Numbered from the stretch's first letter, positions 25,371 to 34,360 are shown. The stretch is DNA of 64,000 bases from an uncultured Anaeroplasmataceae bacterium (GCA_964473015.1 CAYYMS010000002.1:154550-218549), one strand, 5' to 3'. Program-made: numbers and translations. Notes: generated by a model not told the origin, from the letters alone.

Positions 25371-26303
25371 ATGAAGAAAAAAGAAGAGAAAGAAATTATA
25401 TTTTATGAGATTTCTGATTTTAAATACTATTTACAAACCGATAAAAGGGCATCGAAAAATACGATTAATGCTTATTTAAGTGATTTAGAACTTTATGCTG
25501 AATTCTTAAAAAAGTATCAGGGAGTATCAGATGTTACAGAAATAGATAGAGAACATATACAAAAATATATTTTATCTCTTAAAAGAAAAGAGCTATCTAA
25601 GCAATCAATCGCAAGAAAAATTATAGCTATCAAAGAATTTCATAAATTCTTATTTACCGAAAATATTATGAGAGAAAATCCAGCGCATCTTATTGATACG
25701 CCTAAAGCAGATAAAGCATTACCTGTCGTATTAACCAAAGAAGAAATTGATAAGATGCTTTCGTCTATACCATTAGATAAGCCCATAGACATTCGAAATC
25801 GAGCAATGATGGAAACCTTATATGCTTCTGGTCTTCGTATTTCAGAATTGCTAGAGCTTCGCCTTTCAAATCTACATTTAAGAGAAAAATACATGATTGT
25901 TATTGGTAAGGGGAATAAAGAACGTATGGTTCCTTTAGGAGAGATGGCAGTTATATATTTAAGAAAATATATAGAATCAGCTAGAACAAGTCTTACGAAA
26001 GGAAATACGGATTTATTATTCTTTAATTATAAGGGCGATAAAATGTCTAGACAAGGATTTTATAAGTATATCGTTACCCTTGCAAAAGATTGTGGAATTA
26101 AAAAGGAAATATCTCCTCATACGATTCGACATAGCTTTGCAACCCACCTTTTAGAAGGTGGTGTAGACTTAAGAATTGTACAAGAACTTTTAGGGCATGA
26201 AGATATTTCTACAACACAAATTTATACGCATATTGATAAGTCAAAATTAAAAAATATGTATGATCAAACCCATCCCCTAGCAAAAAGAAAGGAAGAAGAA
26301 TAA
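25371..26303 (+). CDS. xerD: Site-specific tyrosine recombinase XerD (RipX-like)
   Basis: Motifs [32 protein letters not shown] and LLGH..ISTTQIY; adjacent to deoB like Bacillus ripX-drm. Confidence 0.9.
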
Positions 26304-27475
26304 TGTTTAAAAGAATTTTTTGTATTGTAATCGATTCGGTAGGCTGTGGTACTGCCCCTCTTAGTTATGAATATAAAGATGATGGCGCAAACACAATTGC
26401 TCATATTGCAGAATATGGTAATGGTATATCCTTACCAACAATGGAAGAATTGGGATATGGAAATCTTACCGATATAAAGGGTGTAAAAAAAGAAAATAAA
26501 AAAGGCTATTACGGAAAGATGGATGAGCTTTCAAAAGGAAAAGATACCATGACAGGTCATTGGGAAATTATGGGAATAGAAACCACTACGCCTTTTAAAA
26601 CCTTTACAGACTATGGATTTCCTAAAGAGTTAATCCAGGAACTTGAAGAGAAAACAGGTCATCCTATTATAGGAAATTATGCAGCATCTGGAACAGAAAT
26701 ATTAAAGGAGCTAGGAGAAGAGCATATAAAGACGGGTGCTATGATAGTTTATACCTCAGCCGATAGTGTTTTGCAAATTGCTGCACACGAAGAATATTTT
26801 GGTTTAGATGAGCTTTATCGCTGCTGTAAAATTGCAAGAGAGATTTGCATGAAAGAAGAATATAAAGTAGGAAGAATTATCGCAAGGCCATTTATTGGGG
26901 AAACAAAGGACACATTCAAACGTACGACAAATCGTCATGATTATGCTTTATCTCCAAGTGGAGTTACCGTTTTAGATCATTTAAAAGAAAATGGATATGA
27001 TGTAATATCTATCGGTAAAATAAATGATATCTTTAATACCTGTGGAATTACAAAAGCCTATAAAACCACTTCGAATCATCATGGAATGGAACTTGCAATC
27101 GATTTGGCCAATCAGGACTTTTCTGGTCTATGCTTTTCTAATTTAGTAGATTTCGATGCTTTGTATGGTCATAGAAGAGATGCAATTGGCTATAAGAAGG
27201 CTTTAGAGGAATTTGATAAGGATTTATCCATCCTTATAGAAAATCTTAAGGAAGACGATTTATTAATTGTTACGGCCGATCATGGAAACGATCCTACCTG
27301 GACTGGAACGGATCATACAAGAGAATATGTTCCATTATTAGTTTATTCTAAAAAAATTGGTAAAGGAAATCTAAATACAAGAAAAAGCTTTGCAGATATA
27401 GGTGCTACAATTGCTACTAACTTCAATGTAAAACTTCCAGATATTGGAACCTCTTTTCTGAAGGAGTTAAACTAA
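26303..27475 (+). CDS. deoB: Phosphopentomutase
   Basis: Motifs [44 protein letters not shown] and TDHTRE. Confidence 0.95.
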
Positions 27476-28647
27476 TGGAAAATTTTATATATAATAATCC
27501 AACAAGAGTTTATTTTGGAAAGGGACAAGAAGAGCATCTAGGAGAAATTTTAAAATCCTATGCGGTTAAAACTATTTTATTACATTATGGTAAAGGTTCT
27601 ATAAAAAAATCTGGACTATATGATAAAATTATAAGTCAATTAAAGGCCTCTAAAATCGATTTTATTGAATTAGGAGGAGTAGAACCTAATCCAAAATTAA
27701 GTCTTGTTTTAGAAGGCATAGAAATATGTAAAAAAAGCCCTATCGATTTAATACTTGCAGTTGGTGGAGGATCAGTCATAGACTCTGCAAAAAGTATTGC
27801 AGTTGGTGCTAAAGTTGATTTTAACCCTTGGCTCTTTAATTTAAAAGAAAAAGAACCAAAGGATCATATTCCCGTAGGTGTGGTTTTAACGATTGCTGCT
27901 GCAGGAAGTGATATGTCTAACTCTTGTGTGATCACAAATGATATAACCTTGGAAAAAAGAGGATTCACAAGCGAAGAAAATCGCCCCCTTTTTTCTATAT
28001 TAAATCCTGAACTTACCTATACCGTTAGTCCTTATCAAACGGCTTGTGGTATCGTAGATATTTTAATGCACACCTTAGAACGATATTTTTCTATAGGCGA
28101 AGAAACACCTATAACAGATAATTTAGCTTTAGGATTATTATCTGCAGTAATTCAAGCAGGAAAAATCATCATAAAAGATCCGAATAACTACAATGCAAGG
28201 GCAACACTTTTATGGGCAAATAGTTTATCCCATAATGGCCTAACTGGTTATGGTAGAAACTTTATAATGTCAGTGCATCAATTAGAACATGAAGTTAGCG
28301 GTATGTTCGATTATATAGCTCATGGAGCTGGACTGGCCGTTTTATGGCCAGCATGGGCAAAATTATCATATTTGAGCTCTATACCACGTTTTAAAAGATT
28401 CGCTTATGAAGTAATGGACGTAGAAAATTCAGGAGATGAAGAACAAGATATTTTAAAGGCCATTAATGACCTACAAACCTTCTTCATTGATCTTGGAATG
28501 CCAAAGTCATTAAGTGAATTAAACGTACCAGAAACGGCGTTAAAAGACCTAGCATATAATGCAATGTTCAAAGGGAAAAGAACATTAAAAGATATCATAG
28601 AAGTCAATTATGATATGGCATTAAAAATACTAAATCTTGCTTACTAA
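27475..28647 (+). CDS. Iron-containing alcohol dehydrogenase (butanol dehydrogenase-like)
   Basis: Motifs NPTRVYFGKG, GVEPNP, VGGGSVID, H.LE.Y, HQLEH and HGAGLA. Confidence 0.88.
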   Translation: MENFIYNNPTRVYFGKGQEEHLGEILKSYAVKTILLHYGKGSIKKSGLYDKIISQLKASKIDFIELGGVEPNPKLSLVLEGIEICKKSPIDLILAVGGGSVIDSAKSIAVGAKVDFNPWLFNLKEKEPKDHIPVGVVLTIAAAGSDMSNSCVITNDITLEKRGFTSEENRPLFSILNPELTYTVSPYQTACGIVDILMHTLERYFSIGEETPITDNLALGLLSAVIQAGKIIIKDPNNYNARATLLWANSLSHNGLTGYGRNFIMSVHQLEHEVSGMFDYIAHGAGLAVLWPAWAKLSYLSSIPRFKRFAYEVMDVENSGDEEQDILKAINDLQTFFIDLGMPKSLSELNVPETALKDLAYNAMFKGKRTLKDIIEVNYDMALKILNLAY

Positions 28648-28660
28648 TCGTCTATATAAT

Positions 28661-28685
28661 AGGTGGTGAAAACCACCTTTTTTTT
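28661..28685 (+). terminator. Intrinsic terminator after the ADH gene
   Basis: AGGTGGT-GAAA-ACCACCT followed by a T-run. Confidence 0.75.
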
Positions 28686-28695
28686 CGTCAATAAA

Positions 28696-28969
28696 TTAGT
28701 TTTTAATACTAGATAAAACTATGTTTGTTATTTTAGTTTATGTTTTTCAATAATTCATTATAGAGTGAATAAAAACTTTTAGTTTCTGAAATATTTAAAG
28801 AATCGGATTCATAAATGAACTCTTTTTCCATAAAATAATAGCAATAAAAAATCAAAAAAGAAGTAGTTTATAATGAATAATTCTTTAAAAAAGAGTCTAA
28901 GAAAAGAAGTAACTTAAGGAAAAAGCATATATTAAAAAATTTCGAAAATAATCTAGTTTTTAATACTAG
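28696..28969. repeat. 17-bp quasi-palindrome (C/T)TAGTTTTTAATACTAG, two copies left of dif
   Basis: Copies at 28696-28712 and 28953-28969; further copies at 33396-33412 (variant) and 33509-33525. Confidence 0.7.
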
Positions 28970-29614
28970 AAAATAAAAATCTTTCTATAACGTCAATAAA
29001 ATAAAATGAACCGTTATTTAGTAATAAAAATTAGAAACATATTATAAAATTATATAAAGATCTTAGTCCATAATCAAACGGATTATTGAAAATAAATTTA
29101 AAAGCTAAATACAAGAGATAATCATCTATAGAATTAATATAAACTAAAGAAATTTTTTTGGCATTCATTTAGTTTTCAAAACTATATTAAGCGAGTTTTA
29201 AAAATATAATTAAACATATATAAATATAGAATAACTATTTTTTAAAATCTTATATTTATTGAAATTATTTTAAGAAAATAGTTGTAATTTGAAAGTTAAA
29301 TGTAAATATTTTATAAATTGAGCATTTCAGGCCATAAACTATATAAAATCTGTAAAAATGGACCTCAAATGGGCACATTGACTATATTTAATACGTAAGC
29401 AAAGCTAAATTAACCAATTCATCTATGACACGTTGATAATGATTCTGGATCGCGATGCTTCAAACAATTTTATTTTATATTAAAAATCAAAAAAATGAAC
29501 ATGTCCAAAATATCGACAAATCGATTTATGATTATCCTTAAAAAAAATTTGTCAAACGCTTAAATAAAAGGTTGAAAAAACATTGATTTCAAGCCATTTT
29601 TCAAGATAGAGGGA

Positions 29615-29642
29615 TATGTGTATAATTTTCGTTATACACATA
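29615..29642. repeat. Perfect 11-6-11 inverted repeat with dif-like geometry
   Basis: TATGTGTATAA-TTTTCG-TTATACACATA, 36 bp left of dif. Confidence 0.75.
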
Positions 29643-29678
29643 CATTAAATAAATCGCATAGTTAAGCCATTTTTAAAT

Positions 29679-29706
29679 GGTTTACATAATATATATTATG
29701 ATAACT
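29679..29706 (-). other. dif chromosome dimer resolution site
   Basis: Minus strand reads AGTTATCATAA-TATATA-TTATGTAAACC. Central hexamer and XerD arm match B. subtilis dif as recalled (ACTTCCTAGAA-TATATA-TTATGTAAACT). Lies at the gene-orientation switch near xerD and parEC. Confidence 0.85.
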
Positions 29707-30402
29707 TATTAAGATATCCAAAAACATAAAATATCCCATTTGAAAATAACTAGAAGAGGTGTTTGACTACGTTTATTTACATAAAAACTGAAACTTCTAC
29801 TTCTTAAACACGTTCAAATGAATATATTTGAGCATGTTTAGGTTTTTGACCTTTTTTGACATATCAATCGATTTATTGTTTTTCGGGTATTCCACCATCT
29901 CATCGCCTATTTTCACTCAAATTCTGAAACAACTGCGTTTTAAGGATATATTTAAAATATCCAAATAATATCTAAAATTCCCTCGCTTCTTCTCTACTTC
30001 TTCTCTGTTTTTGGATATATACACCTGAATATGCCCTAAAATTGGGCCTATTTTCCCCCTTGCTTCTTCTATTTATTTTTAAGGGAAAAGCCCTTATTTT
30101 CTCATATTTTAAGAAAATTAGCTTATTTAGAAGGTTTTTTATGCTTATTTCTATTTACATTTAAATTTTATTCTTTATTTGTACACTATTTATGTCTATT
30201 TTAAAAATAAATGAAATATGTTATTTGTCTATTTTAATGTTGAAAAATGTTAATATAGTCTTCTCATTTTTATGCTTATTCTTTATCATTTTATTTGATT
30301 CTTTTAATTTTCATTTATTAAAAACAATTTTTTTTATTTCAATTATAAAATTATTCTAACAAAAAAAAGAGACATTATTTATGTCTATAAAAAAAGAGGG
30401 AG

Positions 30403-31491
30403 TTATTCCTCTCCCTCTATATTAAACATTAAATCAAATAAAGTTAATTGTTTCATCTTTGTTCCCATTACCTCATCTGGAACGAGTCTAACCCATGTTG
30501 CGGATCTTCCAGTTCCATTTGATCTAATCTTATTTTGATTTTTTAAATTGGTTAATGCTCTATTAATTGTAGATTCCGAAAATTGTGGATGAGCATTTTT
30601 TATTTCATCCTTTGTGAATACCTCTCCTAGTTTTAAAATCGTTGCTTCTACGTTATCGATTTTTCTTATCTTTTTATCAAATTTATAATCATCTGCTTTA
30701 TTTTCCACTTCTTGATATCCTTCAAGCATTGTCTTAATTGTTAGAATGTTAAGTGGAGCGGTTTGAGAAAAGCCTTGTTCCCAGTTATATCCTGCAGATA
30801 TAATGGCTGTTTCAAACTCGTTTTTATGCTCGTAATATAATTGAAAAAAGCTAACATATTTAAAGACATTAAATCTCTGTCTAAATAATAAACAATAATA
30901 AATTAGTAATGCCAGAAAATCATTATGCGATGTATATACATTTAGATGTAATAAATCGACAAAGACATTTGTTATTAATTGGGTTGGCTCAATCAAGTTT
31001 TGATTTAATAGTTTACTATATTCCTTTAATTCCTCAGCTAACTTCTCTCTTTTAGAAATTTTCTTTTTCTCTTCTAGTAAATTTACTCTTACTTTAACCA
31101 CTTCAGATGCAAAATCTATGTTTCCTACATCATGAAATATTTTTTTCGCTAACTGTAAAAATTCGTTCGTCGTCAATTCAATCTCTGATGGTTTTCTTTG
31201 AATTAAAGTAAAAACTTGTTTTAAATTTGCAAGTATCTTTTCATCCTTAGTTCTGGGAATAGCATTTTTTCTTATGATTAGTCTTATCCTATTTTCCGTT
31301 ATTGTTAAATTTAAGAGTTTCGATGCATAAAAGGTATCACGTTCTATTGTAACTCGAATTATGCCTGTAAGATCACTTTTTAAGATATCTTCATAATAAA
31401 AATCTTTTCCTTTAAATTGATATAAATTCATTAAATCCATTACCAATTCTGCAGGATATGAAATTCTATCTAGATTCTTTAAACACTTCAT
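30403..31491 (-). CDS. Fic-family-like protein with degenerate active site and C-terminal HTH
   Basis: Overall pattern resembles Firmicute Fic proteins (PRTKDEK..AN, KYVSF, FTKDEI...P.FSESTINRAL..L....I...G.GR), but HPFxxGNGR is replaced by NVYTSHNDF. Start set at MKCLK. Confidence 0.65.
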   Translation of the reverse strand: MKCLKNLDRISYPAELVMDLMNLYQFKGKDFYYEDILKSDLTGIIRVTIERDTFYASKLLNLTITENRIRLIIRKNAIPRTKDEKILANLKQVFTLIQRKPSEIELTTNEFLQLAKKIFHDVGNIDFASEVVKVRVNLLEEKKKISKREKLAEELKEYSKLLNQNLIEPTQLITNVFVDLLHLNVYTSHNDFLALLIYYCLLFRQRFNVFKYVSFFQLYYEHKNEFETAIISAGYNWEQGFSQTAPLNILTIKTMLEGYQEVENKADDYKFDKKIRKIDNVEATILKLGEVFTKDEIKNAHPQFSESTINRALTNLKNQNKIRSNGTGRSATWVRLVPDEVMGTKMKQLTLFDLMFNIEGEE

Positions 31492-31669
31492 TTTTATCAC
31501 ATCCATTTTATCGTTATAATTATATCAAAATCCTATTCATTTTTCAATTTAAAACAATAAAAATAAGTCAAATAGATTATAAGGCTTATAAAGCTTTATT
31601 TTCTATTTGACTTATACTTTTCTTTTTATAATATTCAAATGCGTTCTAGGGGCAATTTTACCCCTTATA

Positions 31670-33598: not shown

Positions 33599-34360
33599 TT
33601 AATCTTGTGCATCATCTTCAGCAAATAACATTTCTTCTTCATTTTCCTCTGCATTTTCTGCGTTTTCTTCCATTTCTATGGATGAGGTATCTTCCTCTAT
33701 AGTATTTTCCTCATTCATAGCTTCTCTAAGCTCTTGAACTAAGACATCTGGATTTAAAAAATCCTTTAAGTCTGAATCTAGGTCTATATTATATTTAATT
33801 TCCGTCTTATTTTCAAATTCTGCTTTATGTTCTAAGACCGATTGTGTAGCAAGCTCTAAAGATTCAATATTAGTTTCTTGTTCATAATTGATAACTCTAT
33901 TTTTCAGTCTAAAAAATGCTAAATTTACTTTAGAAAATGTATATATCCTTTTTTTGGGAGTTAAAGAAAAACTCAATCTTTTCGCTTTTCTTTCACGTGA
34001 TAAAACTTTTCCAACGACATCTTCTCTATGGATAATACGATATTCTTTTTCGTTATCACCGGCAACATAAATATCATCCGTTTTATATTTTATGATTCTT
34101 CGTAAAAAATATTCCTCATGCGACTGATATAAAACAAAATCTTTAATACTTAATTTAGAAGGCGCACGAAGCAATACATAATCACCCTTTTTGAAAATCG
34201 GCTTATTTATATCGCTTTCTATCCTTAAAGATCCAATCAAACCACTCTTTACACGTTCTACAACAACTTCTATAGAGTGAACATCTATCTTTTCTTCTTC
34301 CTCGTCTTGTTCAGGTGATTCGGAAGCCTCTGTATTTAATTTCTTTTTATATTTTTTCAT
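33599..34360 (-). CDS. S24/S26 peptidase-like domain protein with acidic tail, apparently non-catalytic
   Basis: P..KKGDYV...DFVLY...FLRRII....VAGDN...VVGKV pattern; Glu/Asp-rich C-terminus. Confidence 0.55.
   Translation of the reverse strand: MKKYKKKLNTEASESPEQDEEEEKIDVHSIEVVVERVKSGLIGSLRIESDINKPIFKKGDYVLLRAPSKLSIKDFVLYQSHEEYFLRRIIKYKTDDIYVAGDNEKEYRIIHREDVVGKVLSRERKAKRLSFSLTPKKRIYTFSKVNLAFFRLKNRVINYEQETNIESLELATQSVLEHKAEFENKTEIKYNIDLDSDLKDFLNPDVLVQELREAMNEENTIEEDTSSIEMEENAENAEENEEEMLFAEDDAQD

Follow-up and report, generated by a model that had tools for sequence, protein, structure and literature searches.

Two 9-mers that match the consensus of the DnaA box stand beside the dif site of the chromosome analysed here, and it is these 9-mers, rather than the perfect palindrome in which they are embedded, that are conserved among related Anaeroplasmataceae. 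From their sequence, their conservation pattern and their fixed spacing, we infer that DnaA is the protein that binds them; we give the identification of the pair as DnaA-type boxes an even chance of being correct, and any physiological role of the pair beside dif is speculative.

Results

The locus and its dif site

The window, that is, the whole 64-kb stretch of DNA analysed, comes from an organism with a GC content of ~30%, which its class B RNase P, its gene content and its protein matches assign to the Anaeroplasmataceae. Its cumulative GC skew peaks at ~29 kb, and the genes on both sides converge toward a 1755-bp gene-less gap (28648-30402), in which the longest ORF is 55 aa and none attains 60 aa; together, the skew peak and the converging genes identify the locus as the replication terminus. 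The dif core lies within this gap (Table 1). When reverse-complemented, it is identical to the dif site of Bacillus subtilis, ACTTCCTAGAATATATATTATGTAAACT (PMC3025954), at 10/11 positions of the XerD arm and at 6/6 positions of the spacer. To the left of the gap are xerD, deoB and an iron alcohol dehydrogenase gene, and to the right are the gene for a 367-aa protein, a PRK-family kinase gene, mgtC and parC. Among 30 ORFs scanned with NCBIfam, xerD encodes the sole tyrosine recombinase, the remaining scanned genes being housekeeping genes. A 253-aa conserved protein encoded further right (33599-34360, minus strand) has merely a weak match to Peptidase_S24 (LexA-like; E 0.005).

The xerD gene is 3.3 kb from dif, and the order hemW-xerD-deoB-adh is kept in every relative whose left flank was read (25371-28647 in the window). 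This layout recalls the single-recombinase Xer systems, in which the recombinase gene lies beside its site; yet the dif site described here has two differing arms. An imperfect inverted repeat, AAGCCATTT-TT-AAATGGTTT (29664-29690), runs into the beginning of the dif arm on the XerD side, and pairings akin to it (AAGCCA..TGGTTT) are present in L019, L010, L013 and L015. A small ORF running through dif was considered and rejected: although roughly half of the relatives keep frame +0 open, no start codon is conserved, stops interrupt the frame in the window and in L017, L015, L031, L032, L024, L028 and L022, and similarity extends to all six frames.

Table 1. Features of the terminus locus, in coordinates of the 64-kb window. 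Offsets are relative to dif.
Feature	Position	Strand	Description
xerD	25371-26303	+	TIGR02225 XerD, 366.6 bits
Block TGAACATGTCCAAAA	29496-29510	+	Family consensus GAACGCGTCC-AAAA; includes TGTCCAAAA
Block AAGCCATTTTTCAAGATAGAGG with first AAGCCATTTTT copy	29591-29612	+	Directly left of the palindrome
Palindrome TATGTGTATAA-TTTTCG-TTATACACATA	29615-29642		Perfect 11-bp arms, 6-bp spacer, 28 bp
Left DnaA-box-type 9-mer TGTGTATAA (TTATACACA on the minus strand)	29617-29625	-	Offset -62 to -54
Spacer TTTTCG	29626-29631		6 bp, unconstrained
Right DnaA-box-type 9-mer TTATACACA	29632-29640	+	Offset -47 to -39, 38 bp before dif
Second AAGCCATTTTT copy	29664-29674	+	Abuts the XerD-side arm of dif
dif core GGTTTACATAATATATATTATGATAACT	29679-29706		28 bp, 36 bp right of the palindrome, at the skew switch
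Parts of dif			GGTTTACATAA, XerD-type arm in reverse; TATATA; TTATGATAACT, XerC-type arm
Motif M TTTGAMYATGTTTA	29762-29775, 29805-29818, 29827-29840	+, -, +	Three copies right of dif
KOPS-like polar words AGAAGAAG	29986-30006	-	Pointing at dif; also 29794-29805 and 30063-30070
Predicted Fic-fold neighbour gene	30403-31506	-	367 aa, C-terminal winged helix

The palindrome and its chance expectation

An earlier note, made from the window's sequence alone, had reported a perfect 11-6-11 palindrome 36 bp from dif, and this observation was borne out. The accompanying strings are also all present: AAGCCATTTTT precedes both the palindrome (29591-29601) and dif (29664-29674), the short repeats on the left are TGTCCAAAA (within 29496-29510) and TTTGTCAAACG (29548-29558), and those on the right are TTTTTGACC and TTTTTTGACA (29843-29861). 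The inner bases of the palindrome, ATAA-N6-TTAT, are those of dif.

By itself, the palindrome is only mildly improbable in AT-rich DNA. Perfect inverted repeats with arms of at least 11 bp and a spacer of 0-10 bp were counted and compared with first-order Markov simulations. The window holds 16 of them (~9 distinct hairpins) against 1.15 expected, and two with a spacer of exactly 6 bp against 0.05 expected; ~8% of simulated 1755-bp AT-rich gaps hold at least one such repeat. Because the palindrome is only weakly unusual when taken alone, its significance comes from comparison with 20 relatives, all of which have a dif identical at 28/28 positions. Its arm was also considered as a dispersed repeat and rejected as such, since the word shows no excess (53 versus 52 at two or fewer mismatches). 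The word TTATNCACA occurs four times in the 64 kb, two of these being the palindrome arms.

Eight contigs that carry the window's genes are 100% identical to it across the gap, palindrome included; they derive from the same strain and are uninformative on conservation of the palindrome. Among the sequences compared, exact 11-bp symmetry is confined to the species of the window, and searches allowing up to seven mismatches did not find the palindrome in L009, L010 or L012.

Comparison with relatives

The comparison comprised 20 further distinct versions of the locus which, with the window, make 21 sequences. They were reached through homologues of two flanking genes and through exact-match searches for the dif core, which gave 10 loci in species-representative genomes and 10 in metagenomes. 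All relatives are metagenome-derived, and because each was reached by way of either an identical dif or syntenic genes, they are phylogenetically non-independent. The more distant P0224 was left out, as its contig stops short of dif.

In every relative retrieved through flanking genes, dif is identical at 28/28 positions, and the order hemW-xerD-deoB-adh, gap, Fic-like gene is the same in every locus with called flanking genes. Across the 21 sequences, the non-coding DNA around dif has zero indels from approximately -110 to +240, with an identity to the window of 40-77% in the left flank and 38-63% in the right flank, compared with 29% for shuffled sequence; in a gapped alignment, recognisable blocks extend to about -330 and +335. 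The left-hand short repeats fall inside such conserved blocks, while the right-hand TTTTTGACC/TTTTTTGACA pair has no evident counterpart in the relatives when inspected by eye.

These comparisons bear on the possibility that the palindrome is a second Xer-type core, whether as a further dif (tandem or alternative), as an XerD-only site or as a scar left at dif by an IMEX-type element. Its 11-6-11 geometry, seen in this one genome, its distance of 36 bp from dif, the inner ATAA-N6-TTAT that the two share and the presence of xerD 3.3 kb away would all fit such a site. The arms, however, do not: TTATACACATA matches the XerC-type arm TTATGATAACT at 5/11 positions and the XerD-type arm TTATGTAAACC at 6/11, and beyond the inner TTAT it agrees at only 1/7 and 2/7 outer positions, respectively. 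While dif is invariant in relatives, the outer bases, spacer sequence and spacer length of the palindrome all change, and its left arm is absent in 11/21 sequences. Conserved synteny and the indel-free surroundings of dif (gapless from -110 to +240, with gene order constant wherever it was read) indicate that nothing has been inserted. The 30 scanned ORFs include neither a further recombinase nor a phage gene in the vicinity of dif, and a blastn search against phage genomes gave no match. We consider a second Xer-type core extremely unlikely, and conclude that perfect 11-6-11 symmetry next to dif does not by itself indicate a site for a recombinase.

The interpretation in the earlier note was accordingly divided in its fate. 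A tandem or alternative Xer site does not withstand the comparison, in which dif stays at 28/28 while the palindrome, whose arms agree with those of dif at only 5-6 of 11 positions, decays. An att scar of a dif-targeting element fares no better: the comparison of the locus in relatives that the note had called for revealed no element between or beside the palindrome and dif, and the right-hand repeats read as arm-type sites are not conserved. What the comparison of sequences does support is the alternative mentioned in the same note, an inverted pair of DnaA boxes at the terminus, for the conserved units proved to be exactly TGTGTATAA and TTATACACA. The practical lesson is that a conserved unit must be read from relatives.

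Two conserved 9-mers

In relatives the 11-6-11 unit is lost, its outer TA pairs and spacer having drifted. Mean identity to the window among the nine nearer relatives is 0.65 for the left 9-mer and 0.89 for the right, as against 0.35 for the spacer, 0.33 for the left outer TA and 0.67 for the right outer TA; from this contrast, the constrained unit is 9-6-9, with each half of DnaA-box length. In the three closest relatives, the site reads TGTGATTAA-ATCCAG-TTATACACC, TGTGTATAA-ATGAAT-TTATGCACT and TGTTGAAAA-GTTAAG-TTATACACA.

The right 9-mer is the more widely kept of the two. TTATNCAC(A) recurs in relatives, invariably 38 bp from dif, and in 10/10 nearer sequences positions 1-4, 7 and 8 are invariant while position 5 can be A, C, G or T. 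A forward box with no more than one mismatch is found at -47 or -55 in 19/21 sequences. The left 9-mer, allowing one mismatch, is present at -62 to -60 in 9/10 nearer relatives and absent from the 11 deeper ones. It varies at position 3 (A in five, T in four), at position 5 (all four bases) and at position 6 (C in six, A in three); in the nearer relatives it forms an inverted TGTGNAWAA 4-6 bp upstream of the right 9-mer. The spacer between them reads ATCCAG, ATGAAT, GTTAAG, TTACAT or TTATAG in relatives, and ranges from 4 to 6 bp in length, being 4-5 bp in L018, L017 and L032. Several of the 11 deeper relatives, all of which lack the left half, have a direct repeat (-55/-47) instead, for example TTATCCACAAAATCACA. 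Across these 11, A is frequent at positions 1-2 of the -47 box, which then reads WWATTCACA. What has been conserved longest is thus ATTCACA, a core that a protein other than DnaA could recognise as well.

A third box lies further out. A perfect box in reverse orientation, TGTGGATAA, occurs at -143 to -145 in L009, L018, L021, L022, L024, L025, L028, L032, L039 and L044, 82-97 bp beyond the proximal boxes of these 10 relatives; the -144 box reads TTATCCACA in 10/12 sequences and TTGTCCACA in the other two. At this position (29529-29545) the window reads ATGATTATCC, with four mismatches, and the box has been lost. Of all 21 sequences, only the window has two perfect proximal boxes, which may compensate for the lost -144 box.

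Retention of the right box in 19/21 sequences, and restriction of the left to the nearer subclade, could also mean that only the right box is functional and that the left arm, and with it the palindrome, arose by lineage-specific accident or neutral drift. Exact 11-bp symmetry in this species alone would agree with such an origin, as would the share of simulated intergenic regions that hold a perfect inverted repeat of this kind (see above). Against it, a reverse box with at most one mismatch is found in 9/10 nearer relatives and is identical in L042, even as the spacer turns over. Because the left 9-mer is kept while the spacer next to it is replaced, selection appears to act on the left 9-mer too, and we think it rather improbable that the right box functions alone.

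Match to the DnaA box

The consensus of the DnaA R-box is TT(A/T)TNCACA (PMC4585315, PMC6868365). Both 9-mers of the window match TTWTNCACA exactly, TTATACACA having A at position 5. Positions 3 and 5, the most variable in the left box, are the W and N of the consensus, and variation across the orthologous sites falls mostly on degenerate positions, with left position 6 varying as well. The window has a pair of boxes, and its relatives have two to three (-144, -62 and -47/-55). In 250 kb of fetched sequence, 11/14 perfect copies of TTATCCACA lie in this flank of dif, and exact matches to TTWTNCACA are 66-fold denser in the interval -160 to -30 than elsewhere, a density that reflects conservation and not independent events. 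Several points count against reading the 9-mers as DnaA boxes: two to three boxes are too few for titration of the kind performed by datA or the B. subtilis box clusters, the pair is divergent, unlike the convergent boxes I and II of E. coli DARS1, and it stands at the terminus, for which no DnaA-box cluster was found described in the literature.

A variable spacer of 4-6 bp, together with a direct repeat in deeper clades, argues for independent monomers and not for a rigid dimer. In the arrangement that we propose, a single monomer with a DnaA-type helix-turn-helix, most likely domain IV of DnaA, would occupy each 9-mer independently of the other, leaving the 6-bp spacer free of protein contact. 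The right box would be the ancient and obligatory element, kept at 38 bp from the dif arm on the XerD side, and the left box a subclade addition, with the perfect third box at -144 completing a small cluster in most relatives but lost in this species. Such a cluster would serve as a regulatory DnaA-binding locus and not as a recombination substrate. Its role might be that of a local titration or status site where replication finishes, or the control of a weak promoter that reads toward dif and whose -10 element, TATAAT, lies inside the left box, or both.

The promoter scan that points to this element places TTTTCA at 29598, 17 bp from the TATAAT within the left box. This putative promoter is not conserved, the -10 position of relatives being occupied by GAAAAG, ATTAAA or CACAAA. 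Also inside the gap is a terminator-like hairpin, TAAGGGAAAAGCCCTTA followed by a T-run (30080-30096, plus strand), which by eye is not conserved. It faces the "wrong" way for the minus-strand neighbour gene, hinting at a plus-strand transcript that crosses dif.

Alternative readings of the palindrome

A palindrome over a promoter could also be the operator of a different regulator that shares the TTATNCACA specificity, such as the winged-helix protein encoded next to the gap or a dimeric HTH repressor, and would then control the promoter overlapping its left arm. Dimeric HTH operators typically show perfect two-fold symmetry around a spacer of 6 bp, the left arm contains TATAAT with TTTTCA 17 bp upstream, and the gene for the family-specific Fic-fold, winged-helix protein stands beside the dif gap in each locus with called flanking genes. 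Only ATTCACA makes up the longest-conserved core, and the same 9-6-9 arrangement occurs within longer symmetric arms, in intergenic DNA, in five IMG/VR contigs, as would be expected of phage operators. However, the symmetry is not kept, the left half being missing in 11/21 sequences and replaced by a direct repeat in some; a spacer that varies between 4 and 6 bp would be intolerable for a rigid dimer; and the isolated third box at -144 is a perfect match to the DnaA consensus in 10 species. The 11 distinct viral matches are close to a rough chance estimate and have unrelated flanks, and nothing links the Fic-like protein to the 9-mer block in particular. On this evidence, we regard an operator for another regulator as unlikely.

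The viral sites merit a brief description of their own. TGTGTATAA-N6-TTATACACA is set within longer arms (..AAGTG / CACTT..) in L049, L050, L051, L058 and L061, which are unrelated viral contigs, and these sites may form an operator family of their own; the ORFs neighbouring the five long-armed sites provided no lead. A phage or IMEX origin of the palindrome was rejected, given that the 9-6-9 arrangement occurs in 13 IMG/VR contigs (11 distinct), approximately the rough chance estimate, in unrelated contexts. Operators of the CtsR, Rex, CRP, NrdR, LexA and Spo0A types were likewise set aside, by informal comparison, because spacing or orientation does not fit their consensus.

The palindrome might, finally, act as a structure, either an RNA stem-loop (a terminator, attenuator or sRNA element) or a DNA cruciform. 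In this species, the predicted RNA fold has a free energy of -11.6 kcal/mol, with z = -2.95 relative to shuffled sequences. No U-run follows the stem on either strand, though, and the terminator scan has no entry at the palindrome. RNAalifold returned an empty consensus for both strands and four sub-blocks of 16 sequences, and relatives alter one arm without compensation. A search of Rfam at E <= 1 gave two chance-level matches elsewhere in the gap and none at the palindrome. A structural hairpin is very improbable.

A conserved module around dif

The DnaA-type boxes belong to a larger conserved region. Approximately 650 bp of gene-less DNA around dif (29350-30010; -330 to +335) is conserved in the 21 Anaeroplasmataceae sequences, and the stretches of it that were tested yielded neither a conserved ORF nor a consensus RNA structure. 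Its repeated or conserved blocks are GAACRYGTCC-AAAA, AAGCCATTTTTCAAGATAGAGG, ATCGCAT and TTTGAMYATGTTTA. AAGCCATTTTTCAAGATAGAGG is 100% identical in L039, L042, L044 and L009, with a mean identity of 0.86. AAGCCATTTTT is found at -88/-87 in 14/21 sequences, and its second copy, at -15, is kept in four of the 21 (the window, L019, L010 and L013). All three matches to motif M in the 64 kb, allowing one mismatch, fall at 29762-29840, and a copy at +148 is present in 19/21 sequences.

The word GAAGAAG occurs 29 times in the window pointing toward dif and twice pointing away, its orientation being opposite on the two sides of dif; the KOPS-like words at offsets +118 and +306 to +318 are conserved and non-coding. 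GAAGAAG is the KOPS word of Lactococcus lactis (PMC3384302), which makes it a candidate FtsK/SpoIIIE guide sequence in these genomes. Judged by sequence, the polar words are consistent with guidance of an FtsK/SpoIIIE-type translocase to a functional dif.

The neighbour gene to the right of the gap encodes a protein that belongs to no Pfam or NCBIfam family and whose named matches are nearly all from Anaeroplasmataceae. Its AF2 model (pLDDT 83.7) matched 8uqu (E 8e-12), as well as 3eqx and 3cuc, in Foldseek searches. The canonical Fic motif HxFx(D/E)GNGR was not seen in its sequence, so that the protein, modelled as a Fic fold plus a C-terminal winged helix, probably represents a degenerate Fic that carries a DNA-binding domain. 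It is also a candidate for binding to one or another of the module's blocks. That all of these elements form one terminus module, in which dif is held in register with DnaA boxes, repeats, GAAGAAG guides and the Fic/winged-helix neighbour, is a tentative and still doubtful proposal.

Discussion

The known locations of DnaA boxes are origins, a few promoters and initiator-tuning loci of the datA and DARS types. A conserved set of boxes 38 bp from dif, in the last-replicated DNA, does not belong to any of these classes, and conserved initiator-type boxes at a replication terminus are unusual; a full-text literature search found no description of DnaA boxes beside dif or of a DnaA-box cluster at the terminus. 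If DnaA binds these sites, the initiator would be physically coupled to the place where replication ends and chromosome dimers are resolved, and the state of the initiator could be tied, in a directly testable way, to the completion of replication or to dimer resolution. The locus might then act as a terminus sensor or regulator of the DnaA cycle, or afford DnaA-dependent control of Xer/FtsK, neither of which has yet been described. The organisms are gut and rumen bacteria from a lineage that has reduced genomes and has received little study, and the module is a compact candidate for studies of terminus organisation beyond the E. coli and B. subtilis models.

Compared with the DnaA boxes of oriC and promoters, the 9-mers are alike in that they match exactly, vary mostly at degenerate positions and are accompanied by the -144 box in 10 relatives. 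They differ in their location at the replication terminus, 38 bp from dif, and dnaA is absent from the window ORFs scanned.

The core of E. coli DARS1 reads TTATCCACT-ATTCC-TGTGGATAA-CCA-TGTGTATTA, its boxes I and II being convergent with a 5-bp gap and box III lying beside box II in the same direction (PMC6868365). Like DARS1 and DARS2, the site in the window is a very small, non-coding cluster away from oriC, in which two 9-mers of opposite orientation stand a few base pairs apart (5 bp in DARS, 6 bp here). A DARS-type sequence was nevertheless rejected, as the pair in the window is divergent (TGTG...-N6-TTAT...), with a 6-bp gap and without an adjacent third box, whereas box III of DARS1 follows 3 bp on. 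The taxa are also unrelated.

The datA locus and the DnaA-box clusters of B. subtilis contain from 5 to >9 boxes and are origin-proximal or mid-replichore. They resemble the boxes described here as non-coding chromosomal clusters outside oriC, and differ from the two to three boxes at ter, which are in fixed register with a recombination site.

With XerCD/dif and the XerD-only sites of B. subtilis, the palindrome shares a 28-bp 11-6-11 layout, the inner ATAA/TTAT and a location at the terminus. Unlike dif, which is invariant, it is not conserved as an 11-6-11 unit.

For the module as a whole, the plasmid Xer sites cer and psi offer a parallel; their accessory DNA is confined to the XerC side, where ArgR/PepA or ArcA/PepA binds it. 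Here, too, conserved DNA at strict spacing surrounds a core Xer site, and by analogy such flanks imply an architectural nucleoprotein complex around dif. In contrast to cer and psi, conservation extends to both sides of dif, the boxes are on the XerD side, and the polar GAAGAAG words point to control of the FtsK/SpoIIIE type.
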